Source: Vermamoeba vermiformis
Lineage: Eukaryota
DNA: 64,000 bases
Reading direction: 5' to 3'
NCBI GenBank assembly: GCA_045837725.1
Contig: JBEWZL010000191.1
Location: forward strand, 62,001 to 126,000
Shown: one piece after another, positions 2,789 to 38,960 of the stretch
Numbering within the stretch: position 1 is the stretch's first letter
How the letters are laid out: the number at the start of each line of letters is the position of its first letter
Made by a program: the position numbers and the translations under genes
The notes under the pieces: generated by a model
What the model was told of the DNA's origin: nothing
Database searches by the model: none
The model's input: the letters and a program-made list of their open reading frames with translations, nothing else

Positions 2789-5700
2789 TTAAACATTAGT
2801 ACTATTTGGAATAGCACTAGGCTTCAAGTAACTGTTCGGCAAAAACCTCTTTTCGGCGCGATCTTCAATAATTTTTTCGATCTGTTGCAACGAGCTTTGG
2901 AACTCTCGTACAAATGGTCTGACTTGATCCACTTTATCCAAATTGAAGCTCTTGTAGTCACCGAGATGATCGTAGTGAATGTTGCCGTACTCGAATGTCA
3001 TCGCTTGTTTCATTGCCAAATAAGGTGATGGCAAGGCTTGTTTCAACAGCGTTGTTGAGGAGCCACTTTTAGCCGTTGTATCTTTCGTTAATGAATCCAT
3101 AATAGACTCGGAACAGATCATACTGCAGCCAGACATCAAGTTAACTGCGTCAGAGAAGAAATCGAGTTGACTGAAGTGAATGACTGCGTGGTGCGGACCT
3201 GTAAAATGCGGCATTAGAAATTATGACGAAATTTGAATAAGTTTAGATCCGGCACTTACCAGCCAAGAAAATGATTCGAGTGAGCAATCTAATCAAATCT
3301 TTTCTATTATCCAAGATCTTCTTATCGTTCCAAATAAGACCCTTGATATTACCGCCATTTCGGGATTGCAATTCCGAGATCCAGTTCTGAAGTTCCCAAT
3401 CTTTCTTGACGTCCTTATTGTTCTTATAGAACGTGCAGACATAGTCCGTCACGAACTTTGCGAGAGCATTCCAAATAAGCTTGCCGTCGTCTCTGTAAGG
3501 ATAAACTTTGGGGTACTCTGCAACGCCACGCTCGGTCAACGAATAGTCAAAGTCCAAATCAGTCAAGGTCCACTTCTCGTACGCAACTTCAACGAGCTTC
3601 TTCATTTGGTCCTTTGTGGGCGTCATGAACGGAATTTGCGTATTAAACCTCATTTCTGCGCTACTGAAGGCCGTGTGAGCGACAGAAAAGTTCAAATGCG
3701 GCTCTAAAAGCACGTAGACAGGGTGCCTATTAACTCATTAGTATAAGCCCTACTAAACTATTATCAAAAAATTGAGGTACTTACTCTTTGTGCAAATGAC
3801 GCGGAGTAGCTACAGAGAATGCACCAATCATGGCATGTTGTCCGTACTCGTGTGCGCATAAGCCGTGGTGATTGACAGCAGCGACTTGCACGAAGAACTT
3901 TGCCAGTTCCCAACGCTCGCCTTGTCCGGGAGTAAACACGTGATTATTGATCTCGATGGCTACGGGCACTAATGTCTCGCCATCAAAGACCATGAGGCAG
4001 TAAGGAGCTGCAATGAACTGTTTCTCGTCTTTCTTGGTTTCACCGCGTTGAATGGCGTGGCCAATTTGAGTAAAGATCGAGTAATCGACAAAGAAGACGT
4101 TGCCGCTATTAACTTCCGCTTCGAGGTCTGTTCTCTTATTGACTTGTTGCATCAATACGTTGCTAGTAATAGCTTGATTGATGCTTTGTGGCACTTGATC
4201 CAGCTTCGTGATTCTTCTCAACGACATCGGATCCAATCCAGACAATCGCTGCCAGCCAAACACTTTGTCGTTACAATATGATGTAGGTCCAGGAAGCGGT
4301 GCCGTCTTACCAAAGTCGTTCAAAGGCGCTTTGAGCAAAAGCATTAGACTATGAAAAATGGACCTAAAGTGACACAACTTACCATAGCCGCTGCCAGTGT
4401 TGGCTTTTTTCCAAGTCAAATACTTCCAGTAGTACTTGGCGGTACCAGAAGCCAATGAGCGAAGAGCTTTGCTGACGTATTTAATTGACACTGCAAAGTG
4501 CTTGGTCAACGGGAACTTCTTCGGGATACCAACGCACTTGTTGTGGTAGTAGTGATGTTCGTATTGATAGTTATCACGTGTCTTGGCTAATGCTGTCTTG
4601 CGGGTCTGTTTATGCATAGAATATTGGGGCAGTGAAGGTTCAATGCCAGATCCGTCGCTCAAAAGTTCGATGTACTTTGACTTGTTCAGATCCAATGTCG
4701 ACTTTACTGAGGCCTCGGCGATGACTGGAATTTCGTCAATCTCATCGGCAGTTTTGTCTTGCAATGGCGGCAAGCGGAAGAAATCTTCTAAGAACTCGTT
4801 CAAGAAAGTTCTATTGGGGTCATATCGCTCTCGAACAGCCAAAAATTTGCGAATATTTTCGGGATCGTACTTCTCGTACATCTTCTTCGAGTCAATAAAG
4901 ATCTTGCCCCAATGAGGACGCGCGTCGAATTTGTCCATCATCTCTTGTTCAATCTCCACGAAGAATTCTCGGAACTCAGGATTGTATTTTGACGCCACAA
5001 TGTCAATGCAACAGCTTTGTCGGCCTGAAGAGTGGCCCAAGAAGGTCTTAGAGGCATCAATGAATCTATTACTTGTAAGTAAGTAACAACTAAGGTCTGA
5101 TAGATAGCACTTACCGAGCGTGAAGTGCTTGATCCGCAGGGAAGCTATCTTGGTCCTTCAGTTTGCGGATGCGTTCCATCAAATAACATATAGCCTCGCC
5201 TGACCGCTCAAGGTCAACGGAGAGCTCCATATTCCATACATCAGCACCCCATGGATGATAATGGAAGAGACATCTGTTAGCGGTAAGTAACAGGATCTCG
5301 GTTGGTCACGAGGCCTCTACGTACCTTGAGTTTTCAACTCGTTCAGTGACTGGGAATATAAATTCAGCAGGCTTCCATAAGAATTTCAACATTCTTTTGT
5401 TGAAAGTACGGCAAGCAAATGCCCAGATGTAATTGTACATCGCATTCAGTACGCGTCTTAGAAGGTCTCGTAGTTTGTAGTTAATATGAGTATTCTCGGG
5501 CTCATCTGTTCTGGAGCCAGCGAGCGCCATTGCGTACTCGGCCAAAGGGTACCAAAAGATTTCAGTGAACTGCAATGACAAAATATGTTAGCGGATGTGG
5601 TTAGCGAAGAAACTCCGGTTTACCTCTTGTTCTTTCAAAATAGCAGGAATGTTCTTGCAAAATGTTTGAGCGTCGAGTTTTTTATCCACTCTTTTTACTC

Positions 5701-6804
5701 GCGAGAATTCTACGCACTGAAGGGTAATGTCGACAATTGCGCCTAAAACCGAAAGGTTCAGATAAGGCCACATATCTATATGTTATTCAATTTCATATTT
5801 ATCTTACCTAAGCATCCAAGATTGCAACCAGCTGCTCTAATGTCGTCTTCAGTGGTTACATTCTCCCACAAGTTACCGAATCCGTCCACGATCGAAAACG
5901 AAAGGACGTAATCGCTGAATGTTTTAGTAGTATTACCGGTACCGTGAGCAGCAGTAGCCATAATACCACCAACAGTAGGAAAATTGAATACGGTCGGGCT
6001 CTGGATCTCGAGTCCGTGATCTTGAGCTATTTTGGTCAACGCGGCTACTGATATGCCAGGCTGGGTCTTAATAGTCTTCGAAACCTTATCGACCTCAAGG
6101 ACATTATTCAGTCTTTTAAGGCACATCATCCAGCCTCCTTTACTCGGCTCGACAACTGGAGACCACGAGTAACCTAAAAAGCCACATCCGCATCAGTATT
6201 GAGCTAGCTTTACGTAATTTCGAAGAAGCAATGATACGGGAGATTCGATTTGATAGATTCGATCCATAAAATACTTTTAAATTGGCATTCGAAGCCGAGT
6301 TTTCCAATGGATCTCGACGAAACGGTCTGGACAACATTGACAGCAGGGAGAAAGGCCCCGTAATAAAATTAATCTACTTACCGCCTCCAATTACTCTAAT
6401 CTTCTGACCGAGCTCATTGGCCTTCTTAACGATTAATATGACTTCCTCAACGCACTCAGGCTCGAAATAGCTGGATGGTAAATTCAACTCGGTTAGTAGC
6501 CGCACTACGTCGTAGATGATTATATTGGCTGGAAATGATGTCATATTAAGTAGCACTGATAGTACTGAGTACTGACTTACCCCTCGATGAACGTTTTTTT
6601 GTTACCGAACCAGTTTTGCCAAGCACGATCGACTTTCATTTCTTCAAAGGTTCGCGGGCCTTTAGCCTTGCGCTTCAAGTGCAGTATGTCGGTGTATATT
6701 CTCGTCCATACTCGGTAAAGTAGATTGACGAAGGAAACGAAGATCGCGAGTGATAGGTGTTGTCGGCTGAAAGTCCAGCAGCGCTTAATGGGCTTGTCTG
6801 TCAT
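2789..6804 (-). CDS. Fusion protein: FAD-linked sugar-1,4-lactone oxidase (GULO/ALO family) + lipoxygenase
   Basis: Exons splice in frame at every junction checked. Oxidase motifs WQNWFGN, IRVIGGGYSWSP, TVGGIMATAAHGTG, NLGCLGAIV, RPHWGK. ORF 3781-5040 runs without a stop into LOX motifs PSLPQ, DKVFGWQRLSGLDP, HEYGQH, HPVYVLLEPH, YPYRDDG, HHAVIHFSQ and the C-terminal IPNSTNV. Confidence 0.9.
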
Positions 6805-7600: not shown

Positions 7601-10600
7601 TTAGATGCTTAGCAACGAGGTCGGTTTAGGATCTCGCAGATCGTTGCAAATTGTTCGCACTAGTTGCGTAAAAAACGGATCCTCTTGTGGATGTTCTGAG
7701 TACGGTTCGTACTTGTCCAAATTATCCTCCAATCGTAACTTCAAATTTTCGTAGTTTGACTTGATCAACTGCATAACCTGTTCATCCAGCAACCATTAGC
7801 ATGCGCACTCAATTATAAGGAATAGGTCATATATGGGCACGTACTTGTTGTGGCGACATGATCTTATCGGGATTGTTGACGGTCCAATGCTCAATCTTAT
7901 TCGAGAAGTGGTCCACGATAGTCTTTATGTTGGCCATAGTTGATAGTACCACCTTATTGGGGTCGTGTTGTTCGACTAAATATATGTATTAATACTAACA
8001 TTAGTATTATAGTAATAACGTACCAGCTTCGTAGAACTTGAGCAGATCGCTGCGGCAGCGAATCATTTCGTAGTACAGGTCATCGTAGTCGACGGAGTTT
8101 GGTAGTAGGATATCTCCGAATGTAATAAACATGTTCAATATAATCACCATCTATAGTTTAAATGCCTTAGTGTTCTGTTCCGCCCGAGATCAGAATCCAG
8201 ATTTGTCTTACCTTGGCGCACAAGACTAGAGTCTCTGTGTGACCATTTGCAAGCTCTTTAGGCACAATACTCTTCATAAATATCAACAACAAGTTCCAGA
8301 GTGACTTCCACTTGACGTTCATTCGCACACGGAACTTCTTCTCGTAACACAACATGCGATGAATAATGTCGAGACCTCGGCCCAGCAGATCACTATTGAA
8401 CGTGCGACCACCGTTTAGTCGCACAAATTGGATCACTAAGTCAACTATAGCATTAGCTAGTGTTCGTTTTTCCATATTGATCGTCTTTTTCTTTGACTGT
8501 GCAAATGCGGATCAGTAACGAACATAAGTGACTAGTGTTATACGTACCTGAGTATTGATTTTGATAAAGGCGACAACGGCTACCAATTTTTCATCGTGGA
8601 TCAATCGGCAAACTTCATTATCTTCCACGAGCACGAGCAGAGTCAACAGCACGGCCTTCGTGTGTTGCAAGTTTCTAAGAATAAATTTAGCATCATATGC
8701 CATATTTGTAGAGACAAACGTACCTCGTATCTTTAGCCGATGAAAAGATGATAGCAGCGAGCTTGAGGTAAGACACGAGTAAATTAGGGACGATGGGGAG
8801 TCGTCGCGGTGTTGGAGGTTGCATAGGTCCCGAGCCCATGGATTGAGAGCCTAGCGATTTGGGTTCTAAACAAATAATGAATACTTCCGCACAACAGCAT
8901 ATACTCGACTTACCAGCACTATTTTGCTCGTTGTTCTGAGCATTGTTATTATCCGAAATTGTCACGTTGCCCATCGATTCCACTGTCGAGCTAACAATCA
9001 AATCGGTATCGTTAGCACTGTTAGGGTTATTGTTATTGTTTGCAGGCGGTGGTATCGTTGGTTGCGATGAAGCCTTTGGTGGCATGTGAAAAGGTGCCTC
9101 GGTCTCGTGGAATATTGACTGCATGAAGTTGTTGTTTAAATACAACAGCTCATACACGGTCAACAAGAATGCACCGATCTTATGCTTCTCGTCTACAGCA
9201 CTATATTACGAAATTCGTTAATACGAGGAACCTTCATTACTAGAAAACAACGCGTACTTTTCACTCTTCCGCGGTGACACGAAACTAGTCAAATATCCGG
9301 TGAATCGAGAGAACATGCCCGGCGTTTGTTTAGACACTTGCACTTGCTCCAAGTCCCTAGTAAGATGTTCAAATTAGTCTCATAATCATAAAGGTCCTAT
9401 TCTAAGTTTTATATGACATACTTGATCAATTCGTTGCTTTGCACGGTCAACACTTGGGCGAATGTTTTAAACAGCTCTTCGTTATGAAGCTCTTTAAGGC
9501 CTCTATAATACGCATTATTTACATCGTGTTTCTTGTAATTGGCCAATAACGTCATTGTCATAATTGCATCGAAGGCTAGTGATTGCGTGTACGATAGTTT
9601 GAATACCTAAAAATAGAAATATTGGTAATTGAGCGTAGATGTGATGAATTACTCGAGAGTAGAGATTTTTCCATATTTGGAAACTTACTTGCAAAAAGGC
9701 AGAGAAAATTTCGTATTGAACAAGATATTCGATGAGATTGTTTTCATGAAATTGATCTTGGCCAGTCAATATAGTAATGTACAGCTTCAATGCTCGTTCT
9801 TTTTGCGCGCCTGCATGTTCGCTGCTAGCTGAAAAAATTTGTGCAATGTTTGTCGTCAATGATTTGAAAATTGTCTCGACGTTGTTTGGCTCCGCAATTA
9901 AATTTAAAATTTCTTTTGAGTTGAGCTTCTTCTTGTATAAGAGTTCCAATAATATAGTCATTGTCTGTAACATTTCAAAATTAGCAATTTGTGCGCGCAA
10001 ATTGAGATTTCTCTCGGTTTCAGATCCGGCGACGAGCCAGGTATAAGGTTATATCTATGGACTATATGATAATATTATAGGAGCCACATACCTCTAAAGC
10101 ATGGCTAATACGTAGCTGATTTCCGTCATTAATTGTTTCTATGCATTTTTGAAAAATGATCTGTACATTTGCCTGTCGACAAAAAAAATAATAAGCATTA
10201 AATATCGATAGAATGAGCATTAATGTATTATTAAACCGTAATTCCAATTCATAAAAATATTATTTCCGATTTTTGAGGTCGGATCTTGTTTTTATATGAA
10301 AATTTTCTGTGCATGTATGATATTGTATTTTATGAATAGGAACTTACTTTCACTTTTAATAAATCGGCTTCAGGAATGTTTAAGCAGTTTTCTAAGCAGC
10401 TGTGATTGATTTTCAGCAAAAAGAGTTCGTCCCAAAACTCTGGTCTGCTAATGCCAGGATCTTCACCCTAAATATTCATATAAATACACATAATTCATGT
10501 AATGCTTATTTATAAGCTTAAATATTATTTTCTGCATTATTAATTGAATTATTTTGATGACGTCGATTTTGCTGAGCCAGTTGAAGTTAGCTCAATTACT

Positions 10601-10733
10601 ATTATTACGCATGTAATTCAAATATCTATTATTGTACCTTAAATAAGCTCTCGTAAATAGCCACGAATTTTGGTTTTAAATCTGCTTTCGATCCAGCACC
10701 TCGGGAAAGCGCCAAACGATTAGGTTCAGCCAT
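7601..10733 (-). CDS. ARMH3: Armadillo-like helical domain protein 3 (C10orf76/DUF1741)
   Basis: N-term LKPKFVAIYESLFK|GEDPGISRPEFWDELFLLKIN; C-term EQVMQLIKSNYENLKLRLEDNLDKYEPYSEHP; YDDLYYEMIR. Multi-exon, with one apparent +1 frameshift at 9518-9521. Confidence 0.85.
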
Positions 10734-10977
10734 TGTAATATACACTTAAAAAATACAAACGCGTAATTAATGTGACTTAATTCACGTCTTGTGGTGCTGA
10801 GGTTATTTTAAGATGGATGCTGGGATAAAAAATACTGGTGCAAATTATTCCGTGCTCGGGGATCCCACGTGATCAACGTGAAATTTTGAGGCTGCTATTA
10901 AATAGGTCATAATATGTTCAGATTAACAATTTACTACTATTCTACATCATTATAAAGCGGATCGAGCAAGAGAAATC

Positions 10978-12613
10978 TTATTTCTTTTTAGCAGGTTGAA
11001 GAGCCTTCTTTAGCTTAGTATATCGTTGCTCTTGACTCTCATCGACTATTTTACCGATAAAGAACTCCATATCTTTCAATATCTCGACGTCCACGAGATC
11101 TACAATCGTGCTCGCGGTCTGCGTGTTCTTGGCTTTTACATTCTCTTCGGCAGCGTTTAAACTGTTGGCAACGATATCTCTAATATACTAGACGGGGGTT
11201 AGTAAGAAAATAGAGGCATTATTGATATTAAAAGTACAAGGTAAGCGAGAAATGGTTGCCGGATCTCGATGGATCCGCTCGGTTCAAACTTACGTTTACA
11301 AGAATTTTGTTCTTTTCAGTAAGGGAGGCAATCGTCTCCTTATCTTTAGCACTGCTGCTCTTTGAACTTCTCGGTTTAGCCTCTTGCGGCGTTGGTTTAA
11401 CTTCGCTTGCATTTGTAATTCTCATTCCCTAATAGCGGATCCGTTAGTTTGCTACTAATACGACCTTCAACATTATTGACATTATATATTTACCTTCTGC
11501 AACCAACGCATGCCCATTAAGAACTCTTCAAAACCGATTTTACCGTCGTCATTAATATCCAAGTTCTTAAACAACGCATCGAACTGCTCCTTAGGCGTTT
11601 CAATGCTAAATAATAAAATTAATAAAATTATTTAGGCACTAATAGAACAATATGAGCTAAAGAAGAATAAGGCTCAGTGATATATACCCTAAATCGTTCA
11701 TAAGCTTCTTAAGCTCTTTCTTCGTTACAACACCATCGCCTATATATTATACGCCTATATTAATATAATCGTATCGTGGCTATTATAATCGATTGCCATT
11801 ACCATCAGTGTCGCATAATTTGAAAAGTTCTTTCATTTCTTGCACTTGCGAGTCATTGAGCGTCACCAAGAACTATACAATACTATTATATTAGTATAAA
11901 TCGTTAATGTAGTTTCTATAACATACGTTTGCAATTGAAGCGGTGCGTTTGTGAGCAGATCCAATGCTGTCAGATTGTTTTCTCTTTGCGGGAGGAGTAT
12001 TGCTGTTTGATGGTTGTGGCGATTGTGGTTTAGGGTCATTTGATAAGCTCATAAGCAATCGCGTGGACTAAACATTAATTAAGAATTAAAAACGGATCTC
12101 AAAAATAATAAATTGTATTTTTTGTGTCTTTTGCCATTTATACTTTACTTTAATATTATATAATCAATATATTGATATATTATCGATATTTACCTTTTGA
12201 ATCCATCTCATTCCGCCCAAAAATTCGTTAAAGTTGATTTTTTGATCTCCATCTGTTTACCGGCGGTTAATAAATCAAATAATATTCAAAAAAAATTACT
12301 ATTAAATATTGCGCAAATTGTAACTTACTTTGATCGAGTTCTTTGAATAACGTCTCGATCTCAGTTTTACTCGCTTTAGTTAACTCTGTCATGAGACTCG
12401 TAAGCTCTTCCAAATCAATATGACCATCCCCATCCTTATCACATTGATTAAAGAGCTCTTTCATCGCACTGATCTGCTCGTAAGTCAGATCTTGCGCGAA
12501 CTGTTCGAAATATCGGTTAGTCTTGGTTGCATATCATATAAAAGCCATCATACTTGAGCTACGGAGTCTTTTTTAACCAATTTACGTTGATCTCGTTTTG
12601 ATTGTTGTGCCAT
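10978..12613 (-). CDS. Calmodulin-like protein with two EF-hand pairs and a C-terminal helical tail
   Basis: EF loops DKDGDGHIDLEE, DTDGDGVVTKKE, DINDDGKIGFEE; duplicated MKELF..CD units; ends ...ALQPAKKK*. Confidence 0.8.
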
Positions 12614-20650: not shown

Positions 20651-22779
20651 TGAGAACTAGTAAATATACTCTTGTGGTGCCTCTATGGCAAAAATGAAAA
20701 AAAATGGTAAAAAGTTGGCAACCTGATGTTTTATTTCCTCCGATAAATAACGTCAAAAGCATCAATTGTTACGAAAGTTGCAAGCAAAGTGAGGAAAAAT
20801 TCAAATATAATATCTTTGGCAATAACGTTACCTATATAATGACCTAGTAAGCAAGAACGTCAAGTTGGTATAACAACTGGCTTGGACGTCACTCCAGCAC
20901 TAATAAAATAAACCGTAAATTTAGCTCCTGATCTATTTTTGGTGGCTAACACTCTTCGCGATATAGCCTTGATATTCCTCTAAATATAGTGTCAGTACTG
21001 CGTATAATCATATATTGTAGGTTGGTAAGTACTTTGCATTGATTGACTCCTTTTACCCATTTTTATACGAGATCTCCATTCATCTTGTTGCTGTTGAGTG
21101 ATCGGTTGTACCTAACTAATGTAATATTCGTTCACTGTACTCTAGTTGCACTATAACTGTTGCTTTGTTGCTGCGCCATTGTTCTATCGATTCGGTGAGA
21201 TAAACAATCTCCCGATTTAGATTAACTTTGCAACTATTTGAGGGTGTCTGTTTGTTACTGAATCAATCTAATCAACATTTCTAAACACGACAATAGCAGT
21301 GCCGAACCGCAATGGATGGTTTGGCCAGCAAAGAGCGGAGTACATCTAGAAGGCCGCTGAAATTGAAACCTGCAGGAGAAGTGGTTATAATTTCTGCACT
21401 ATAATTAATATTTTTTCTACTGAAGATAAACTTGGCAATTAATTCGAACGACCAGGAGATCCATACTTTTTGATTCGATCGATCGAAAAAACTGGTACGG
21501 AGTTTTTAAAAATAGTGCCTGCCAAACTCGTTAATTGCAATAGCAACACGCTATTTGTCGTACTGGTGCATCGATCTGTCTGCTGGACGCAGATATAGAT
21601 CCAGGTAACGCTGGCTTACCGAACGATCCAACACCTCAATAGAACGGATAAGATTTATTTTGAACTACCAGATCCGAGTTTAGTGTTTGTTGATAAACAA
21701 AAAAAAAAATTGTAGACGCATCAAAAAATAGCGCTTTTATCAATTAGCATTCCTTTAACCGAACACATAATGTATTTATTTAATGGCTTAATTATTCACT
21801 TCTTGGTCAAGAATCGAAGGACACCTATGAGCGATCTGATTTGATTGCTGGATTAAGCGGGTTCCAATTCTGATTTAAAGCACACCAAAATAACGAGTAA
21901 GTATGATAGTAAACATTACTAATTGTTACATGATTTTCCGCGCCTTTAGTTCAGCACGACTGATTCTCGAATTTTAAGATCATTTAAAGTCTAATTTTCT
22001 TTCTTTTTGATAATAATGCAAAAATGCGCTTCTGCTGTCAATAATCAAAATACAAGTAACTCAAGAATTTTCTATTATTTTAAACGGATATCCATTACCT
22101 CCTCAGAGCTCTCGTGGGGATGCCTGGCAGCTTTCTGATGGAAAACTTCGCCATATTGATCCTTTTCTCTAATTAGGCTATAACTAGTTTACACACCAAC
22201 CGCAACATAGAAGGCAAAAGTTAATATTGGCGAAACTTCCTCAATTTTTGGATCGATTGTTCCGCGGTACCAGCATTGCACGCTTAGCACAAATACGAAC
22301 TTGATTCAGTTTCGCTCATTTTGTGTCACGCAATAATATGAATGCTATGAGGCAGTACACTTGGACTTTGCGTAAGTGTTAAGTTGAGAATTTACCCGCG
22401 GAGGAGAAATTTGATGATAATCATTTAAGTGGTCTTTTCCTTTCGTTTGACGTACGTACATTACCAATAATTAGACCTGGCACAAGCCTCCATAAAATTT
22501 TACCGTAGTTGGCGCGTTCCATTCTCTTTGCTCAAAAAATCTATTCAGGTTCAGATATTTCGTTTTGTTTTGAACCATTTGCTGAAAAAAGCAACAAGGA
22601 TGATAGCTGGTGATCGAAAATAATTTACATATAAGTCAACATCGAGCGATAAAACGCTAAAAAATAAGAAACTTCATCGAAATTTTTTGATATTCGCATT
22701 GCGTCACCGCAACACCAGTTTAAAAAGCAGCAAAAATAGTCATTAGTAATCCAACTTTAGTATTATTCATAATCAAAAC

Positions 22780-23926
22780 ATGTCAACACGAACAATTGTT
22801 ATCACGCCTACTACTGAAAGGCGCATCCGAGAGAAATTTAAGCAGCCGGTCACTCCAAAAAGCGCGTTTGATGCTACAGCTTGGCGTCAATATTTCGTGG
22901 AGTTCTTGGGCACTCTGTTCTTCATTTACGTATCTACGGGTGCCGTAGTGTCAGTCACTTATGTGGGCCCGCTCAACTCTGGTGCCATCGCTGTCATTGG
23001 TCTCGCTTTTGGATTTGGCCTGGCAGCAATGATCTACGCGGCAGCGAATATATCTGGTGGTCATATCAATCCTGCCGTCACTATTGGATTCATCGTCGCA
23101 AACAAGATCTATGTTTTGAAAGGGTTTTTCTACATCTTCTCTCAGCTGGCCGGCGCAATGGTTGGATCCGCTTTGCTTCGCGCCACCACTCCTGAAATAG
23201 GTACGTACCAAAGTACTCTTCCCACGATCAATTTCATTAATGTATACTTTCTGACTATAGCGTGGCGTCCTGTGAATCTGGGTGCAACAGCAGTCAATGG
23301 CAACGTATCACTTGCGCAGGCAGTGTTTTTAGAGTTTATCATCACATTTATGCTCGTGTACACTGTGTTTGCGACGGTGGGTATTCCCAAGAGTAAGTTC
23401 ACTGTGATTGCGTATGTTGCAAAAATTACTGTCTGATCTACGTCGTAGGTCGAAACGGTATGGGCAAGTTAGCGCCATTAGCGATCGGCCTATCGGTTCT
23501 CGCTGGACACTTGCTCGGAGCACCATTTACAGGTCCATCAATGAATCCAGCACGAAGTTTCGTAAGTTTTTATTTTCATGAAAAAACAATAACACCGATT
23601 TATCCTTATCCTCATAGGGTCCGGCTGTAGTGTCTGGATACTGGGAAAATCAGTGGGTCTACTGGGTCGGTCCTTTTCCAGCAGGCATCATCGCTGGCTT
23701 GCTCTACAAATATCTTTTGCTCGACAAAATGCCGTTCTGGAACAGACCAGAAGTCCTCAAAGAGTTGCCGTTGGAAGTATATTCATCGGGTCCACAACAC
23801 GGCCTGCCGAAGACTGCGTGGGTTACTCAACCAGATATGGCAAATGCTGGTCCAGATCAAATCCCGCCTCCTGGTTTCCCCAATGCAGGTCCGAGTGCGC
23901 AAGGAGTCGTTCAAGAAGCTGCCTAA
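22780..23926 (+). CDS. Aquaporin (MIP family)
   Basis: [36 protein letters not shown]; three introns. Confidence 0.95.
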
Positions 23927-24094
23927 TAATAGTATCTATTTTATACATTTTCTGTTGTCTATGTGAAATAAATTTTGATTGGTTTATGAAAGAGGAATGA
24001 CAGCAGCGACAGGTGTCACACTCCACCATTTCGCTATTTGCACAAATCTTTATTTCTAAATCAACCCAGTGGCGAGCACATAATTAATTAAACG

Positions 24095-27000
24095 ATGGGT
24101 ATGTGGAGCTATCGGTACCGTGCGTTGCTCGTCGGCATGATTACGTTATGCTGGACGTTAGCCAACGTTGAGGCAGCAGGTCCGAGAGTTGTTTCATCAT
24201 CTTACACCCAAAAGAGTCTTGTATTTTTTGATGTCGGTTCTGACGTGGCTATTATGAATTTTGACTTCGATCAGGACATCTATTATCAAAAACAATGCTC
24301 GCCACGACCATTCGACCCGCCATTAGAACCAACTATAATTTTACCGTGCTGCAATGCTACATTGACGACGGGCTGCGTCACTCCTTCTGCGTCGTTTAGT
24401 AGATGCATTGATACTACCGTTCAGTATGATGAAGAATTTCATTTTCCTGGCAACTCAGTGGGCAAATTTGCTTACGAATTCCAAGTAGCTAATCCAGATA
24501 CCTGCCACTCGATCTTGATCGGATCAGCGATGAAATACGGTACGGCAATTTTAAAAAAATATGATATTAATCAATTATCACTATGGCGTAAGAGATCGTT
24601 TAACTTTAACTTAGGTGTTACGATCAATCGAATATATATTTAAATTTAATATTAATAATTGGTTGAAAAACTACTAACATCCTTTACATGAAATAGGAAT
24701 TATTACGGTCAAGCTTTTCGGCACACTAGAGACGTTTATTGCAGGCCAGAATGAAATGTTTTATTCGGGGCTTAGCGGATCGAACGGGTTATTCTATTGC
24801 TGCAGCATGATCCGTGGCAGAGGAGACTGGAATGGAAGATTATATGTGCGGATGGAATTAACGGTGGATTCCAAGTGGACAACTCAACTGCTTGGTATGC
24901 AGTTTAACAAATTGGATCGGATCATCCTTTTAATTCATGAACGGGCGTTTAAATTGCTGTCGAATTAACCATAAAGGCGATTATACCTTTATGCTATTGC
25001 TCAGTTTTTCTCGGTCACATAGCCGTGCACATCGCTCTAATTCACACTGACTAATTGACGTCTGTTTAGGTTCACCAATCATTCCATCGGTCGATTACTT
25101 CCATACAAGTAAGCGTGATCATTTACTAAGGCATGTTCACGAAGCTAATTATTATTCAGATCGAATTGAGATTCGTTGTGCGGATGGTTACAATTTCACT
25201 CGTTGTTTTTCGCAGCTTACGGGCGGTTGTTGGCCGATGGCACCAGCATTAGACGATCCTGCTTTTTATTACGTCACAATGTCAGCGTGAGTATATCTAG
25301 ACAAGAATTAAAGATTTTCTGGAGACTGACTGTGATCCACAGCGGAGTAATGCCCGAAGGTCAGATCTCATCAAAGAGGTTTTCTATTGGCTTGGTCTTC
25401 AATACAATCAGTTTCTCTAGTGGGAATGTAAGTGAAAGCTACTACAAGCTATTATTAACAATGAAAATAGTCCTCCGCGACGTATTTACTAGCAGATCGC
25501 AAAGTGCTCGATCCAGCGAACCAGTGCCAAGTCTATTTTCCATTTTTAGTCAACAAAGACGGTGAGGTATGTATCGTGCGTATGACATATTTTGAATCAC
25601 ACAATCGGCATTAACTTTTCGTTTACTTTGCATGAAGCCAGCAGACCCTGTACCCTTCCCCGTAGAGAAACCAGAAACAGATTGCTCAAGCCCCAAATTC
25701 TCCGGCATAGTCGATGGTAATATTATTCATTCCCTATTTAAGCTAGCTTAACAAAGTTCATCCGATAGGGATGTTGAAGTTGATCGATGACTACTCCAAT
25801 TTCAATTCTTCATCGCTAGAGGTTGCCGTACAAAAGTTTCTGTTAGGTTTGGGCGCGACGTGGCAAGAAGGCTGGACGTCCTGTTTCGCTCACATTACCA
25901 ATGAATTGCTTCAGAAGAAGACTAACCTGACTACTTTTGAAGACTCCACTTACTGCCCTTTCACGAATGCCTCTGACCCTCTTTATCTTAACGATCCGTG
26001 CTGTAATGTGCGACAGCAAGAGCTCGCGTGCTGTCGTCCCCGAAACATTACTGTCGACTACGAGCAATCAGTTGTCAATGCTGATGCTGTGGCCAATCAA
26101 TGTCAAAGACCGAAGTGCATTACAGAGACTATTGCCGATTTCATGACGCTGCAACAGTCAAGTGCTGATCGCATGACTGGATGTACTGCCACGACTTCAA
26201 AGGTAATTTCGTAGCAACTTCTTTTTGCTAGCCCACGCAGAATGTAATAACATCACACTTTTTTACAGAACTTAGATAGTACTGCGTTTAGCATCGTGGT
26301 CGAAGGTTGTTACGCAAGTTTGTTCGAAAGCTTTTGCGTCACGAAGTAGGTGTAGTCATGTCTACCATACTAATTTTGCTAATTATTATCTTTTAGTGCT
26401 GATTGCCGAACTTCGACTAAGAATGACGACTCGCAGTGCGTACAAGGAAAGTGTACTGTACCGTGCACTGCCAATGACGAGTGTTTGTCCAACGAGTGTA
26501 CTACGGTCAAGTTATTCAATGGGACTGTAGTTCCTACTTGTGTCATGCACAGCCTTTTGGACGCGAATAACATGCCGTTTGATCAAATTGCCACGCATTT
26601 CATTCAAGTAAGTATCGGTTGCGTGCAACAAAGTGCAGAGCTAACAAACTATATGATAGTGCGTGAACAGAACTATTGACCCTGTTCTGTTCGTGTACAT
26701 TGCACGAGCTGTTGGTGCGACGGAAATTTCAACGGCTGAAGAAGTCGCGGCTGCTCTTATAAAGTCACTTGGCTCCGATCAATGCATTGGTTTCAGCAGC
26801 TTGCTGTTTCCTACCATTGGAGTGCCAGCCAACGTCTCGACGCAAGAAACGTGCGAGTCTTCACAAAGTTGCAATTGGGCGCCATGCGATAGCAACACAA
26901 ATCCCTATTGCAACGCGGCACATTGCAATTCTACTGACGTTCCCGACGAGTTTTGCGGCTTTTGTTTGTACGACCAGTGCTTTGAAGTCTCGAGCTATCC

Positions 27001-30000
27001 CGTGTGCAAGTACTTAGCCTTGCCCTCAGAACAAAACTGCACGCTGTTTAACGGCCATTATAACCCGCTCAACTCGTTTTACCCTCCAAAGTGCATCCGA
27101 CCATCGTCAGTTGGCGAGTGTTATCCGCCTCAGTACTGCGAACAAACTAGCGGGAACTGTGCAGCCACGTGCTACATACCGGTCTACACCGATGCAACAA
27201 GTTGTAATGGACAAACAGTGGGTACTCAAACCGCTACTTGGCAGTCTTGGACGAGAAATAGCACGACGTACGGTCTTTGCACAGTTCCAGTCACAACTTT
27301 GGATGCGTGTCTTAACCTTTCACCTGATGCGAGATTTTGGTACGTAGCTACCTAGTGAAGCTTACTTGCGCGTTTATGTATTGATACGACATATTCTAAC
27401 GTTGAAATTATGTAGGCCGGGAACAGTGTATTCACCGGACAATGCGGCTCAATCAAATCTCAACGACGAAGGATTTTGTACTGCACTCGGTACATGCAAT
27501 CTCGATCTTACAGCACTTGATGTCAATCAACTGCAACAGCTGAAAGTGAAATTCAGTTTTGAGTGCAATCAGTACTGGTGCAGCGGTGCAAATAGAACTA
27601 ACGCGGTTGACTGCGATAATTATGGTAAGGAGTTCTCGATGTTTCCGATGTGTTACTAATATCACTATAGGCTATTGTAACGACTGGACGGGCTGTTACT
27701 TGCCGTATTTGGAAGACAGATCAATTCCTGCTCCGTGTCCTGAAAACTCGCTTTGGACTCCGAAAGGCTGCTTTGTTGAAGCAGGCATCATTGGTCGCCC
27801 AGAGGATTGTATTAGCCCCAAGTAAGTCTTTGTAGTAACATAGTAACAACTCCTAATCATATAACTGTATCAGTCAATGGAGAAATGCTTCGACTACTCG
27901 CGCTGAATGTGAAAGTGTGAAGCTTTGTACAGAGCCAGAAATCGTCAATGCGGTTGGTAAGTTTGTTTAAAAAAGGAGAGCGTTATAGCGTACAAAGCAA
28001 CTAACGCCTTGCGCACAGCATTTGCACCTCGTGACCGTGCAGCTCGTCCCAACAACGTGTCTTTCAAAGACGCGGGAGAATGTGCCAAGTGCGGTGGCAA
28101 ATTCGAGCCCTATTATGAATGGAAGGCACTAGTACGTCTAGTATCAACCCTAATCTAAGAAGAAGTTCTAATAAGACTCTCTTTAACTAGGCTGAATGGG
28201 TGCCACCTCAATGGAGAGGCTTTGAGTGGCGCAAGCGAGAAATGAAGAGTTTGAACAAGTGGGTGCCGCTCATGGATTATGACAAGGCAGTCTCAATGAC
28301 CTACACCGTCGTTGCACGTCGTTACGCAGATATTTTGTCATCAGAGTTGCTTTGCCGGTACGTAGTCAGCAAGATAGTGATCGCATAGTACTATGCCAAT
28401 GTATCGCAGATTCGGTGAAATTCAATCGGCAGTGAGCTCTATTGTCTGTGACTGCACGGACAAGTCAAATGATTGCTCTGACGCTATATCATCTGTTCGT
28501 GATCCCGCTGTAGGTCTCGTGCAAATCTGCACTATGGCCGCGTTCTCACAAACATTTTCTCGTGGCTATTTATACTCTGAGGTACGTCGATAGTCAACTT
28601 AATGCTATACTTACTTACTGTTCTTCTAGCAACCTATTCTTGTCGGTGCAATGGGCTGTGCGCCAGTGCGAGTTGGAGTTGTGCCAATCAGTCAGTTCAA
28701 CTCACGACAAACCATCACTCTGTCAAGTGTTTCTTTGTCATCATCGAGAGATGCACAAGATGGACAAGAACGATTCTACAAGAACTCGAACAATATTGTC
28801 GTTGGAGAGGTACTTGGTGATGGTTTGAGTGTTGACTTCCTTGGCCGTGAGATTCAAGGCGTTAAAGCATGCATTTTCTTCCCTGACGTAAGTAATAGTA
28901 ATATATCAAAAGCATCAGTCTTCTAATGTTTGCGTAGCCAACAACATCTTCATTACCAAATGTCACGCAGTTTGCTGTGTTTTCGATTCCTCGAGGCAGC
29001 AGAGATTTGATCATTACCATTAATAACCCAATCGGTGCTTCTGAAGGGTAAGTCCTTCGTTATTATTTACTGCAACGATGACTAATTCAAAGTATTAGCC
29101 AATACTGCTTTGACGTCGACACCGCAGGCGAAGTGTACTTCGTCATAGCTCTGGTGGATGGTTGGCAAGATACGGACTTTAGCTCGACACTGTCTGCGGG
29201 AGAGTTAGCTCTGGTGGCTATTGGCATTATTCTGTACCTGGTCGTGCTCTTCGCCGCTGTTTATCACTTCGCCGTCTCAATCGTGACACGTGACCCAACG
29301 AAACCTCTTCTCGCTCAATCACGCATTGCGTTGGGTCTTTTGATCATATTCTTGCTCAGTAAGGACAAACCTCTATCCTAATAGTCACGTACCAAACTGA
29401 CCTGCGTCAACAGTTCGAGTGCTCTACTTGTTGCTCTTTGTTAGTGGCACGTTCAACAAATCTCAGTCAGCAGACGTCATTTTCTCAGAGCTCCCGGCAC
29501 TGGTGTTCTTGAACATCTATTGCATCATCGTGCTGAGATGGTGAGTCATTGTTTGACACGTGTCAACCAGGACCCTCGCTAACAGTTTTCAGGGCTGCAC
29601 TTTACCACTTTGGCTTGAAAGACGGTGCAAAGCAGTCATTCAGAAGACTCAAACCAGCTCTCTACGTGTTCGACGGTGTACTAGGCGCAGCATTCATCAC
29701 GTTGCTGATCGTGTACTTCTCACTGAGCGATCAGATCACCATCACATGCGAGTCAAATGACATCGATGTCAACTCTGCCACTCCAAAGCAAATCGTTGCA
29801 ATCGTGTACAAAGCATTCTTTGCAGTTGTTTGCATCATCTTGTCGATTGCCTTCTTGGTTTATGGCTCTCGCATCATTCGATCATCAACTTCGTTCACCG
29901 TCAGATCGTTGGATCGTGCCGAACAACGTGCAATCAAGAAGCGTAAACAGGATGTGCTAAACGTAAGTGAAAAACTCGCTGTAGAAGTACGCGTACTAAT

Positions 30001-31508: not shown

Positions 31509-31750
31509 TTGGCCTTTCAGAAGCGCGTTTGCTTGGAAGCCGTCATTGTAATTAAGCTTACTATATTATTGTCTTTGTGTTGATAAATTTATCAACTACT
31601 GATTTGTTGTGTCTCGTGATTCGTTTTTTGACGTTTTTTGACACGACGGTTGACATTTCGGGTTCCTGTCCGGTCTCCAATTTTGCGTCGGTCATAAAAA
31701 TACGGCTAGTCCCTTATGACAACAAGCGGTTGTATATTTTTAATGCCGCC

Positions 31751-34700
31751 ATGTCCACTTTGATTCGTTTTGTATTTACTTTGTGTATTATTTGTTTTGT
31801 TTCGTTAGTTAGAGCAGATGGGCCTGCTGTAGTATCTTCGTCCTATACAGAAAAGAATTTAGATTTTTTGGACGTTGGTTCTGAAGTCGTTATTTTGAAT
31901 TTCGATTTCGACCAAGACATCTATTTTCAACAAGAATGCCCACAACAACCAGGGGACTCTCCAATAGAGCCCACAATAATACTACCATGTTGCAATTCAA
32001 CTCTTGCAGTAAATTGTGCGACTGCGGACGCACAAGACGGATATTGCTTGGACACCACGGAAGATCGCGAAGAAGAATTTCGTTTCCCGCACAGTTTTAA
32101 TTCTAGATATGAATTTCAAGTGGGTAACCCTGCGACATGCCACTCAGTAATGTTTGGCACGAAAATGGATTACGGTAAGATAGATCTGATAAAAGGCGCC
32201 AAAAGCGCAACACGAAAAAATCCGATAATTGAGCTAATAATACCATTTTCACAAATTTACTCGTATGCAAAATATTTAGCGCTGATTATATAGGGATTTT
32301 AAACATCAAAATGTTTACTCGCGTTAATGCTTACGTCAATGGCAAGCCAGACTTTTACACAGCTTTTGTTGGTGCCAATAGCATATTCGTATGTTGCTCT
32401 ACAATTAGATCTCGTAACCCTTCATGGAACGGCAAACTTTATGTTCGCGTCGAGCCATCTACGGATGCCAAGTGGACTTCGCAACTGCTCAGTACGTAGA
32501 CTTATTATTAGGCTTACATTTTTTCATAATTTGCTTCCGTTCGTTTCATGAAAGCTGATCTTGTGCTCTTAGATTCCCCGATCGTCAGCGCGACTGATTA
32601 TTTTCATACGAGTAAGCTTAGAATATCAATACCAAAGGACAAAGCGACTTATTATCTTTAGATCGACTTGAGATTCGTTGCGCAAACGGCTACAATTACA
32701 CGCGTTGCATTCCGCAGTTGACGGGCGGATGTTGGCCACTCGCGCCAGCCAAGGACGATCCTCCTTACTATTTCATAAATATGGCATCGTAAGTACCAAG
32801 CTCATTGCATTTAAATGATTAACGATTTGATAGTGGCAAACAACCTGAAGGAGAAATTATCGGCCGAAGATTTTCTTTGTCGTTGGCTTTTAAGACCAGC
32901 AGTTTTGTTTCTGGAACGGTGCGCACGTGCATTTTATATTCATATTCATTAGCTTATTCTGATGTACCATCTTAGTCTTCTACGACGCTTTATATTCTTG
33001 ATCGAGCAGTGTTGGATCCGTCAAATCAATGCTTCGTGCACTTTCCTTATTTGGTCAATAGTAACGGAGAGGTATGTATTCTTATAGTAGCCACCGGCAC
33101 TATTATTTACGTCCTATTTGTAGCCTGCAAAACCTACGGCATTCCCTGCAGAAAAGATCGAAACATGCTCGCAAGCAGCATTTTCGACTCGACTTGACGG
33201 TAAGATTTAAGCTTTCAATCACTTTTATTGACGTTTCTAAAGGTTTTTTGACCCAAATTAACGATTTGTCTGGAAAATTCAACGGTTCAACAACCGAAAT
33301 GGTCGTGCAAGATTTTGTCGCTGTAAGTTGACGAGACGTATTCTCATTTATTATCACCTTAATAATGACAACGCAACTATTTCCAGCTTTTGGCCAACAC
33401 CTGGAGTAAAGAATGGACGTCGTGCATTTCATTTATTAGCAAGGGTTTGTTGGAGACTAATGTGGAGTCAGCAGAGTTCATCGATTCGACGTTTTGTCCT
33501 TTCTTCGACCCAACTGACCCACGTTACTTATACGACCCTTGCTGCAATGTTCGGCAACAAGAGTCAGAGTGCTGCCGTGTACGAGATTTGAATGTTGACG
33601 ATTATCAAAATACCGTTGTAAGTGCGAATGCTGTTGCCCAACAATGCAAGCGACCCAAGTGCGTGACGGAAACTATCAACGATTACTTGGCTCTGCAGCA
33701 ATCCACGGCCGATAGAATCACTGGTTGTACTGGACAAAGCTCAAAGGTAAAAAATTACGTGACGGAAGTTCGGCTAAACAAAATTGACACTTTTTGTTTT
33801 AGACCATTAGCAGCGCTGTGTTGACGCAGACTTTGGGATGTTCCAACAACTTGTTCGAGACAAAATGCTTGGCCTCGTACGTTTCAAACGAAGAAACTTG
33901 CCGATTCTAACGAGAATGCAGGTCTGATTGCACTACAGTTTGTACGACAGGTGGATTTTGTGCGGTGCCTTGTACCACGGATGAAGATTGTTTGTCTCGC
34001 TCTTGTTCTCTGACAGCAGCAATAGACGGCAAGAACGTGTCTATTTGCAAGATGATCAATGCGTTGGATATCAACAACGTGCCGTTTGACCGAATCAACG
34101 CTCAATTCCTTCAAGTACGCAACTTACAATTTTCATATGTACTAATACTAATACCTCTTTAGTGCATTGAAAAAACTGTCGATCCTGTGCTATACTTCTA
34201 TATTAAGCGTCTAGTGGGAGCATCAGGTAAGACCTTTTGTTTATCAGGCCAAGAAAAAGTTATAACAATTGTTTAGCCTCCGATGATGTCAACAAAGTTG
34301 CGGACTTGGTACTTCAACTAGCAGGCAATGAAGAGTGTTTTGGATTCGGAAATTTCCTGTTCCAACCGTTGTCTATTCCGACCAACATCTCAACGCAAGA
34401 AACGTGTGACTCGTCTCAGAGTTGCAATTGGGCACCTTGTGACAGCAATGCAAGTTCGAATTGCAACAACAGGACCTGCACGGAGGCAGTTGGCTCCGAG
34501 TACTTCTGCGGCTATTGCTTGTACGACCAATGCATTGAAATCTCGAGCTTCCCCGTATGCAAGTACACGGCCCTGCCCTCAGAACAAAACTGCACTTACT
34601 TCGGTGGTTTGTACAATGGGCTTAATCCTACGTACCCGAAATGTGTCAGACCGTCCAGTCTCGAGTGTTACCCGCCCCAATTCTGCGAACAAAGCAACGC

Positions 34701-37700: not shown

Positions 37701-38960
37701 TCGCAGTTCTTGGCGCAAGTCGACCAATCAGAAGAAGCGCAACACCGTCTATAGCAACATGAACGCTAAACTCATGGCTGAGGAGGTACGATTAGCTCTT
37801 GGACGGACCTTGTAATTAATGTTGATTGTTGTATAGGACGATGACAACGCCGTGCCAATGTCTGACACGTTCCAAGATGAGTCAAACATTGCGTTCTCTG
37901 AGATCCAAGTGGCGCAAGAGATCGGAACAGGCAACTACGGAAAGGTCAATCTCGGAAGTAAGTCACAAGACGCACTGACTGCTGCCAATACATTTTTAGT
38001 ACTGATACTAACACCTTCTGCAGCTTGGAAAGGGTCACAAGTCGCACTGAAACGAAGCAAAGCGTTCGAAAGGACTGAGTTTGTGAGAGAAGCGAAACTT
38101 GTCATGACATTGCCTCCTCATCAGAACGTCGTTCAAACATTTGGATTGACCAATGACGGCTTTAACTTGATGCTTGTGATGGAGTACTGTAATGGCGGGT
38201 CATTGGATGTGAAGTTGTTTGACTTGCCAGATCCAGTGAGTGACAAAGAGAAACTTGCGATCTTGATTGGCATCGCTCAAGGCATGCAACACTTGCATCA
38301 AAACAAGATTATTCATCGAGATCTCGCTGCACGTAACATTCTCATAAATAACAACGTGCCTAAAGTAGCAGTAAGTTTCCATGAAAATTTTTCCGTTTTT
38401 CCGCATGTTTGACACGTGTCATTTAGGATTTCGGCTTGTCTCGTAAGGTCGAAGATATTTTACGCAGCAATACCACACGAAACAATGTCGGCCCGTTACG
38501 ATGGATGGTAAGACCCCTACTTTACGCAGCTTTTGTAGTGTTCGCTAATATTTTATTTCCTTTTTAGGCACCCGAAGCACTCAGAGACGGCACCTACAGT
38601 GCAAAGACAGACGTGTGGTCATTCGGAGTGGTCATGTTCGAAGTGATCGTGCAGTCAGAACCACACGTGGAAGAAGATCCGTTGTTCATTGGCATCAAAA
38701 TTCGTGATGGTGCATTCTTTCCACGACTTCCAGCAACATCGACGAATGATCAAGTGCTCAGAAACTTGATGGAACAGTGTTGTCGCAAAGACCCCAATGA
38801 ACGACCTGTATGTTCGAGTCTGATCAGTCATTTTATCACCTAACTAATTATTAGAGTCGTCCATTTAATTACTGAGACTAACTGTTTTCTCTCGTAGGAC
38901 TTCAACAACATCTGTCACGTGCTCGTGAATCGGTGGAACGAACTCTACGGCAAAATGTAA
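31751..38960 (+). CDS. Giant receptor, copy 2 (tandem paralog of 24095-31508); apparent +1 frameshift at 37663-37666
   Basis: Colinear with copy 1 from AVVSSSYTEK to RWNELYGKM*, with the same 7TM and kinase motifs. Confidence 0.8.

Follow-up and report, generated by a model that had tools for sequence, protein, structure and literature searches.

The window analyzed here is a 64,000-nucleotide (64-kb) stretch of the Vermamoeba vermiformis assembly GCA_045837725.1 (contig JBEWZL010000191.1, positions 62,001 to 126,000 of the forward strand), and the coordinates of its features are given as positions in this window. Near its beginning lies a gene that reads on the minus strand (coding region 2789..6804; ATG 6804-6802, stop 2791-2789) and that is predicted to fuse a flavin adenine dinucleotide (FAD) enzyme of the ALO domain family to a lipoxygenase (LOX). 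The coding region consists of 10 exons totaling 3306 nt, and when these were joined and translated by script they yielded a product of 1101 residues with zero internal stops. A first-pass annotation of this DNA had proposed a single-gene fusion with the same start and stop, and the spliced model confirms it. The ALO-like half of the protein (FAD_binding_4 and ALO domains) spans aa 1-497 and is joined by a 46-aa linker to the LOX half at aa 544-1101. As the annotation had also stated, the flanking exons splice in frame: all nine introns, with lengths of 110, 208, 65, 54, 51, 49, 54, 58, and 61 nt, are bounded by GT..AG, and six of the nine begin with the donor GTAAGT. No second copy of the gene was found in the window by tblastn of the spliced model.

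Exon 1 (6581..6804), which terminates at a GTAAGT donor, encodes the start of the FAD domain (WQNWFGN) and a hydrophobic stretch that is weak on the Kyte-Doolittle scale (aa 16-34, 6759-6703). An N-terminal hydrophobic anchor had been claimed for this region; a stretch of this kind does exist, but its best 19-residue mean is 1.26 within the first 60 residues, and it is absent in the homologue from Clastostelium recurvatum that is described below. Exon 2 (6382..6470) holds the first part of FAD_binding_4 (PF01565, E 0.00092 on frame 6374-6601) and terminates with ..RVIGGG; its acceptor follows a TACTAAC-like branch site and yields ...FIEGYFEPECVEEV, a reading that aligns collinearly with the homologue from Clastostelium. 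The main part of FAD_binding_4 is located in exon 3 (5808..6173; PF01565, 1.2e-15 on frame 5776-6192), and the FAD domain ends in exon 4 (5624..5742) with LGCLGAIVDITLQCV. The ALO cap domain starts in exon 5 (5325..5569; PF04030, E 0.002 on frame 5306-5587) and continues in exon 6 (5115..5273), which carries the His of an H-x-R motif near its end (codon 5122-5120).

The fusion junction is contained in exon 7a (4383..5065), which encodes the ALO C-terminus, the linker, and the N-terminal helical start of the LOX. The landmarks along this exon are RPHWGK (4920-4903), NEFLEDFF (ending at 4777), the acidic linker (4639..4776; 46 aa with 10 D/E and 5 K/R), and PSLPQ (beginning at 4638). As had been claimed, RPHWGK, RERYDPNRTFLNEFL, the acidic linker, and the PSLPQ...YQY start all read in frame. 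The LOX core follows in exon 7b (3785..4328), with the HxxxxH metal ligands at 3867-3850 and a PF00305 match, and in exon 8 (3260..3726; PF00305, 3.3e-20 on frame 3243-3734). Exon 9 (2789..3198) encodes the C-terminal part of the LOX, with ligand His three and four (3190-3176) and, directly before the stop, a terminal Val (2794-2792). Exons 7a and 7b are separated by a probable in-frame intron of 54 nt (4329..4382; GTAAGT...AAAG), which lies inside a long open frame. When this intron is removed, the alignment to a Physarum transcript protein is gapless at that point, and the reading frame of a relative with 96% identity breaks exactly within it, so that protein record P0001 stops there and P0151 resumes.

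The long open frame is a stop-to-stop frame of 458 codons on the minus strand (3781-5157) that spans both enzymes. It matches the last 95 residues of ALO (PF04030, 1.7e-17) and the first part of lipoxygenase (PF00305, 2.8e-09), and it has no in-frame stop codon between the two domains. The first-pass annotation had described an uninterrupted ORF at 3781-5040; the single frame across the junction stands, but the frame reaches 5157 and includes the probable 54-nt intron. Base composition is even along the locus, with GC contents at third codon positions of 0.50 and 0.535 for the two halves. The junction is also read through in both of two close relatives from other assemblies, P0001 and its cluster mate P0152 from a different assembly, which has both domains across the junction by Pfam (96% identity); a chimeric assembly of the window was the concern to which this result speaks. 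Taken together, the 458-codon frame, the two significant domain matches, the nine canonical introns, and the conserved relatives are far beyond what chance would be expected to produce, and the locus is best read as a single eukaryotic gene in which an ALO-domain flavoenzyme is genuinely fused to a LOX.

Relatives in amoebae and a gene pair in Myxococcota

A phmmer search against 1.84 billion representative proteins gave 694 matches at E<=0.001, and the best 150 of the 694 were examined; Pfam was run on eight of these 150 (P0001, P0002, P0003, P0011, P0043, P0052, P0035, and P0042). The top three matches all cover both sides of the junction. These are P0001, a 204-aa fragment with 96% identity; P0002, with 1262 aa, 36% identity, and an E value of 1.5e-45, in which Pfam identified ALO and lipoxygenase; and P0003, with 911 aa, 33% identity, and an E value of 1.2e-24, in which Pfam identified the end of ALO and lipoxygenase. 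According to the source records, P0002 and a 1416-aa isoform, P0153, are Trinity transcripts of Clastostelium recurvatum, and P0003 is a transcript of Physarum polycephalum. P0153 has the complete set of FAD_binding_4, ALO, and lipoxygenase (PF00305, 101.5 bits), and the order of the domains, ALO-like and then LOX, is the same in P0153 and P0003. Because the proteins of the Clastostelium and Physarum transcripts carry both domains, single RNAs span both enzymes in two other species.

The closest full-length relatives are therefore these amoebozoan transcripts, with identities of 33-39%. Among the best 150 of the 694 matches, only P0002, P0003, and P0052 are longer than 800 aa, and P0052 consists of PLAT and LOX without ALO; each of the remaining rows matches one half of the query only. 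A word-index search with the 458-aa frame revealed no relatives of greater length, and the same search with the full Clastostelium protein found its own cluster only, in both cases with weak power since long proteins were crowded out. The predicted FAD/ALO-LOX architecture is conserved and rare, and the possibility that it is already common, which had been raised as a check, is not borne out among the best 150 matches. The linker, 46 aa long in the window, reaches about 100 aa in the Clastostelium protein and about 310 aa in that of Physarum. Residues ~52-365 of P0003, between the ALO end and the LOX, had no Pfam match even at E 0.5, and part of this insert of about 310 residues resembles, by eye, a nucleotide-binding Rossmann-type stretch. 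The P0003 model begins inside the ALO domain, and its transcript or ORF call may be truncated at the 5′ end.

An unfused ALO-like match, P0013, was located in two Myxococcota genome bins, and in each of them the next gene upstream, in the same orientation, encodes a PLAT-less LOX. When 401 sampled Myxococcota genomes were searched with P0013, matches at E<=1e-30 came from 40 genomes, and 30 loci were retrieved. In all five of the closest ALO-like matches (genomes G001, G122, G306, G181, and G381) the gene immediately upstream is a LOX, and with G002 added there are six pairs (loci L001, L002, L038, L039, L040, and L041), all with the order LOX and then ALO-like on the same strand. In L001 the pair occupies 8120-9988 and 10001-11365. 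Where both gene ends are visible, the spacing ranges from an overlap of 1 nt up to 137 nt; it is about 190 nt in G306, in which the LOX extends past the contig end and was detected only with a close LOX query. No LOX was found within the 1.5-kb flanks of the other, more distant ALO-like loci (0/25). In the reciprocal search, a LOX family model matched 51 times, in 36 of the 401 genomes, and 30 of these loci were retrieved (G122, G181, G381, and G306 were examined separately); none of the 29 loci other than that of G001 had an ALO-like gene in its flanks. A genome-contig scan with a single PLAT-less bacterial LOX (mini-LOX), P0016, returned no locus.

No conserved third gene was found beside the bacterial pair. 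The flanks comprise a P450 and a Ser/Thr kinase in L001 and L002, and an aldo-keto reductase, macro domain, or TPR proteins elsewhere, and because they differ between lineages, the bacterial unit is taken to be only these two genes. The predicted fusion is the Rosetta-stone counterpart of this conserved pair, as the bacterial genes are adjacent and both halves of the fusion share clades with them.

The two closest bins share further neighbors of the pair (L001 2709-7985 and 12904-14628; L002 2964-6881 and 12223-14001). In both, the gene before the pair, in the same orientation, encodes a large Ser/Thr kinase-AAA(-TPR) protein; a cytochrome P450 lies before this kinase in L001, with a matching ORF at 1648-3045 in L002; and an MbnB/TglH-type enzyme that modifies ribosomally synthesized and post-translationally modified peptides (RiPPs) is nearby on the opposite strand in both bins. 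None of these neighbors is conserved in the other four linked lineages. A 996-aa open frame in L038 was considered as a true fusion and was rejected, as it consists of two genes in different frames with a 1-nt overlap.

Signature residues and trees of the two halves

Both Pfam domains of the flavoenzyme half are found in the window frames (PF01565, 57.9 bits; PF04030, 64.4 bits), and with lipoxygenase they make up the three domains that the first-pass annotation had expected. Among solved structures, this half is matched best by plant GLDH chains and by xylitol oxidase. According to passages of PMC11099136, FAD is covalently bound through a His in GULO and ALO, and Leu occupies that site in GalDH; at position 113, beside flavin N5, the oxidases have Gly and GalDH has Ala; and Arg388 and Lys456 hold the substrate alkoxide, with Glu386 hydrogen-bonded to the sugar. 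The corresponding columns were placed by HMMER alignments to 8qnr, 8qmy, 8qnc, and 2vfr, and were carried to the window through homologue alignments. The covalent-FAD His site is Tyr in the window (codon 6171-6169) and Phe in Clastostelium, opposite the GHS His of xylitol oxidase 2vfr. Position 113 is Thr in the window and Pro in Clastostelium. The Glu386 site is His in both, with the Clastostelium H-A-R aligned opposite the E-Q-R of GLDH 8qnr, and both retain Arg388 and the Lys of the HWGK motif.

The same columns were counted in a 65-row alignment that consists of 43 rows of the conventional clade and 22 rows of the other clade (clade A), with eight fused or LOX-linked rows. His at the covalent site occurs in 42 of the 43 conventional rows and in 4 of the 22 clade-A rows, all four in a subgroup fused to an ERG2 domain, and in none of the eight fused or linked rows. 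Gly at position 113 is present in 42/43 conventional rows and is absent from clade A (0/22) and from the fused or linked rows (0/8). The Glu386 column is Glu in 41/43 conventional rows; in clade A it is His in 19/22 and Glu in 0/22, and it is His in all eight fused or linked rows. Arg388 and Lys456 are each invariant (43/43, 22/22, and 8/8). The flavin site of the fused domain is accordingly of a predicted non-covalent type.

Scores against curated lactone-oxidase models point in the same direction. The window protein was scored in pieces and reached 34.6-57.6 bits, and the full-length scores were obtained with its homologue P0153. Against TIGR01678 (cut-off 396.8), P0153 scored 149.9, and P0153, P0013, L040, and P0011 together spanned about 150-213 bits and all failed. 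P0153 (75.1), P0013, and L040 also failed TIGR01676 (cut-off 458.25). For TIGR01679, the model of a bacterial FAD-linked oxidoreductase subfamily (cut-off 292.25), the scores were 162.7 for P0153, 195.4 for P0013, 186.2 for L040, and 237.1 for P0011, all of which fail, while two conventional controls passed (P0226, 372.7; P0193, 401.9). The scores below the cut-offs and the altered signature place the FAD half in the ALO Pfam family and not in the sugar-lactone oxidase or dehydrogenase subfamilies. The earlier GULO/ALO-type label is thus correct for the Pfam domains but not for a lactone-oxidase identity, given that the covalent-FAD His and the Glu are missing and the curated cut-offs are not reached.

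In the LOX half, two exonic frames matched PF00305, with 36.5 and 72.6 bits (curated cut-off 23.6). The LOX metal is held by the two His of HxxxxH, a third His, a fourth ligand that is His or Asn, and the free carboxylate of a C-terminal aliphatic residue. In a 19-sequence alignment, the window LOX has His at all four metal-ligand columns (P0016 residues 257, 262, 439, and 443) and ends in Val right before the stop, at the column where all 19 aligned LOXs end. PLAT (PF01477) was absent from every exon frame and was present in the control P0052. The best solved match is 5med_A, a PLAT-less chain of 569 aa that was deposited as arachidonate 15-lipoxygenase and that we take to be a Cyanothece enzyme. 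The alignment begins at its N-terminal helical start (query 186-455 aligned with residues 18-276 of the chain, E 1.7e-13; with the Clastostelium homologue as query, 6.8e-52), and the start motif P.LPQ...R..YQY is common to nine unfused mini-LOXs. The description of this part as a PLAT-less, bacterial-style LOX was therefore accurate, since PF01477 is lacking and PLAT-less chains are matched from the N-terminus. The C-terminal half is a putative, intact-looking PLAT-less lipoxygenase of the iron or manganese type.

The LOX halves were placed in a careful tree of 37 rows (LG+G4) and in a quick tree of 44 rows, both unrooted. In the 37-row tree the three eukaryotic fused LOX halves group with 100/100 support. 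A clade of 12 rows (99/99) contains these three, all five of the tested bacterial ALO-linked LOXs, and P0035, P0049, P0058, and P0103, and leaves 25 rows outside. The quick tree agrees, and the unlinked LOX L003 falls elsewhere from the linked LOX of the same genome. In an approximately unbiased (AU) test, the addition of P0077 to the 12-row clade was not rejected (p 0.33). The ALO tree, also unrooted, was built carefully with 36 rows, and 29 of the 65 quick-tree rows were left out, including the long-branch L013 and L026. A branch with 100/100 support parts 16 conventional proteins, some of which are named ALO or GULO by their sources, from the rest. The two eukaryotic ALO halves (100/100) belong to a 14-row group that also contains the two sets of LOX-linked bacterial genes.

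Several members of these clades carry additional domains. P0035, a 719-aa bacterial-type LOX in the clade of ALO-linked LOXs, has an N-terminal EXPERA/EBP domain (PF05241, 5.3e-09), and P0011, P0043, and P0279 have an N-terminal ERG2/Sigma-1-receptor-like domain (PF04622, 1e-28 to 1e-31) on ALO-like flavoenzymes of the same clade. Unlike the LOX-linked members, these three ERG2-fused proteins retain the covalent-FAD His. Since ERG2/Sigma1R and EXPERA/EBP are membrane sterol-isomerase-type domains, they hint at a lipid substrate. A metagenome scan with the ERG2-ALO protein P0279 found six distant ALO genes, with no LOX nearby. The myxobacterial clade-A genes L013 and L026 have N-terminal extensions of about 190-200 aa without a Pfam match, and form long branches on the fused or linked side of the quick tree.

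Proposed function and alternatives

The fusion protein is proposed to be a bifunctional enzyme with an N-terminal FAD enzyme of the non-covalent type and a C-terminal LOX, the fused counterpart of the myxobacterial pair, and to act in a two-step oxylipin route; we give this proposal a probability of about 0.68. The LOX domain would add O2 to a polyunsaturated fatty acid or lipid and form a hydroperoxide. The flavoenzyme would then take a hydride from the oxygen-bearing carbon of the LOX product, either directly or after its reduction to an alcohol, so that a keto-oxylipin would be produced and the FAD would be reoxidised by O2 or by further hydroperoxide. The Arg-Lys pair, which stabilises the substrate alkoxide in relatives, is kept here, with the sugar-binding Glu lost. 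We infer the substrate, the product, and the hand-over between the domains from sequence comparisons. That both enzymes may serve one oxylipin pathway had been suggested in the first-pass annotation, and it gains independent support from the six adjacent pairs in Myxococcota and from the clades shared by the two halves.

The ALO-like domain comes first in the fusion, and the LOX comes first in the bacterial pair. This reversal probably arose because a LOX needs its free C-terminal carboxylate as a metal ligand. Plain read-through of the operon would bury the LOX C-terminus, and this would fit the reversed order. The fusion would in this way illustrate a structural rule, that a LOX must stay C-terminal, which shapes how such a fusion could arise.

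Four other explanations were weighed. It is hardly credible that two adjacent genes or a chimeric assembly have been misread as one: an ATG is present just after the linker (…PQYSMHK) and the window model is built from genomic sequence, but the frame is open with no stop between the domains, no splice or terminator features are needed to cross the junction, composition is even along the locus, two other assemblies of close relatives read across it, and single transcripts cover both domains in two other species. A true aldonolactone oxidase whose H2O2 or ascorbate analogue sets the redox state of the LOX metal is also very unlikely, although the Pfam ALO and FAD_binding_4 matches and GLDH as the best solved-structure match would suit it. 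The homologue P0153 falls below the cut-offs of TIGR01678, TIGR01676, and TIGR01679, the last of which two conventional controls pass; His stands in place of the ligand-contacting Glu, and the His for covalent FAD attachment is missing; and the domain lies across a 100/100 branch from the proteins named ALO or GULO. An ascorbate analogue had been suggested previously, and the loss of the covalent-FAD His and the sugar-contacting Glu, with scores far below the TIGR01678 cut-off, speaks against it; no evidence was found for the control of the LOX iron by H2O2 that had been suggested alongside it.

The remaining two alternatives concern the role of the FAD domain and are less easily dismissed. 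One is that this domain converts the LOX hydroperoxide without net redox change, by base-catalysed elimination or isomerisation to a ketone or other product, with the clade-specific His as the base and the flavin either structural or transiently involved. This is consistent with His in place of Glu in 19/22 clade-A and 8/8 fused or linked rows, and with the loss of the covalent flavin link while Arg and Lys are retained; it would also make a separate hydroperoxide reductase unnecessary, and the bacterial unit has two genes and no conserved third partner. It is nevertheless entirely inferential, the fully conserved FAD-binding domain fits a redox role, and we know of no member of the ALO/VAO family with such chemistry, so we consider it unlikely. 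Somewhat less likely still is a non-catalytic or regulatory FAD domain, which would take over membrane or lipid binding from the missing PLAT or would gate the LOX as a redox sensor. The LOX does lack PLAT, two residues that are hallmarks of the characterised relatives are gone from the flavoenzyme, and related proteins bear membrane sterol-isomerase-like domains. However, the Arg-Lys pair and the HWGK motif occur in all 22 clade-A rows, the full FAD-binding domain is retained at 33-39% identity among the eukaryotes and as a separate gene in bacteria, and an anchor alone would not require a 450-aa flavoprotein to be maintained as its own gene.

Several points also weigh against the proposed two-step enzyme itself. 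The gene model in the window comes from DNA and homology, an internal start might give a LOX-only product, and the Clastostelium and Physarum transcript records could in principle hold contaminant sequences. The support for the 14-row ALO group is moderate (89/86), and because the trees are unrooted they do not give the donor, the direction of transfer, or the order of events. Two clade-A myxobacterial genes, L013 (G149) and L026 (G215), have no LOX within 1.5 kb. In terms of the chemistry, the substrate and product are guesses for all members, and a LOX gives a hydroperoxide whereas the relatives of the FAD domain oxidise an alcohol, so that an extra reduction step or unusual chemistry would be needed. 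The residue beside flavin N5 differs among the eight fused or linked proteins (T, P, S, or A), and O2 reactivity is for this reason not readable from it.

The likeness of the fusion to known systems is partial. In the coral AOS-LOX and HPL-LOX (allene oxide synthase and hydroperoxide lyase) proteins, an N-terminal partner enzyme and a C-terminal LOX are likewise combined in one polypeptide, and the coral fusion chain 3dy5 is among the solved LOX matches. According to the abstract of PMC5617202, the C-terminal LOX domain of the coral fusion makes 8R-HpETE first. The partner is a haem enzyme of the catalase fold in coral and an FAD enzyme of the VAO/ALO fold here, and Pfam found no catalase family match in the fusion protein. 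The coral LOX carries a PLAT domain, and the window LOX has none. The PLAT-less bacterial mini-LOXs share the N-terminal start motif and the alignment to 5med_A, but they stand alone, whereas the window LOX is the C-terminal half of a 1101-aa protein and belongs to a clade with ALO-paired bacterial members. The FAD_binding_4 and ALO pair, the HWGK motif, and the Arg-Lys pair are shared with GULO, ALO, and GLDH, from which the window protein differs by Tyr for the covalent His, His for Glu386, Thr at position 113, and placement in a separate clade. Type II cholesterol oxidase 3js8 (5.2e-09) and DprE1 4aut (3.4e-06) are weak matches of the same fold that are far more distant than GLDH, and weak Chol_subst-bind Pfam matches occur in clade-A relatives. 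Cholesterol oxidase and DprE1 oxidise lipid CH-OH to C=O.

No report of an FAD/ALO-LOX fusion or gene pair was found in literature searches aimed at this architecture, whose coverage left most subscription journals and supplements outside. In the available passages of a preprint on bacterial LOXs, 'FAD' does not occur, and 'fusion' and 'operon' occur solely in the reference list. The view that no such fusion was known is thus upheld for the literature searched, but the fusion is not unique to the window, as two amoebozoan transcriptomes share the architecture. To our knowledge, the only well-known partner in LOX fusions so far is the catalase-like haem enzyme. In the literature searched, this natural LOX fusion has a new class of partner, and the bacterial operon and the distinct ALO-like clade are unreported.

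Natural LOX fusions are the best guides to the fate of lipid hydroperoxides, and here the partner is a flavoenzyme of the vitamin-C-making fold with a re-tooled substrate site. The fusion, the operon, and the matching trees lead to a strong and testable prediction, namely a new second step in oxylipin formation. The ALO-like clade, about one-third of the sampled relatives, is named arabinonolactone or gulonolactone oxidase but probably acts on lipids. The distribution suggests gene exchange between myxobacteria and amoebae of shared soil habitats. A wider proposal, which we hold tentatively and at slightly less than even odds, is that these genes form an undescribed and self-contained lipid-oxidising module of two enzymes, a mini-LOX and a flavoenzyme of the distinct ALO-like clade that has the non-covalent-type flavin site and the H-x-R motif; it would be an operon in fruiting myxobacteria that became, after lateral transfer and rearrangement, a single fusion in slime-mould-type amoebae. 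The module would make keto- or further-oxidised oxylipins, and the broader clade, in which some members are fused to ERG2/Sigma1R or EXPERA domains, would represent a new branch of the aldonolactone-oxidase fold that is directed at lipids. If so, the oxylipins of the module are possibly signals or defence compounds in soil microbes.

Other genes in the window

A small ORF of 171 codons, counted from stop to stop, runs toward the fusion gene on the plus strand at 2236-2751, and only about 38 nt separate the stops of the two genes. Its product is hydrophobic and probably located in a membrane; Pfam gave no match for it, and it showed no resemblance to EXPERA or ERG2 domains. Searches of the 64-kb window for tRNA and Rfam RNA genes found none. 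Further genes encode an aquaporin/MIP protein (22750-23436, plus strand, 2.1e-36), a tyrosine-kinase-like protein kinase fragment (37837-38412, plus strand, 6.6e-29), and a DUF1538 membrane protein with a long acidic insert (54571-56076, minus strand, 2.3e-48).

Two pairs of paralogous Cys-rich ORFs that appear to be secreted are located on the plus strand, at 24092-24643 and 31556-32293 and at 26660-27355 and 34231-34899, with the members of each pair about 7.5 kb apart. The ORF at 26660-27355 had no Pfam match. The members of the pairs are similar at the protein level, with no similarity detected by blastn, and this pattern suggests that a block of two genes was duplicated in tandem long ago.

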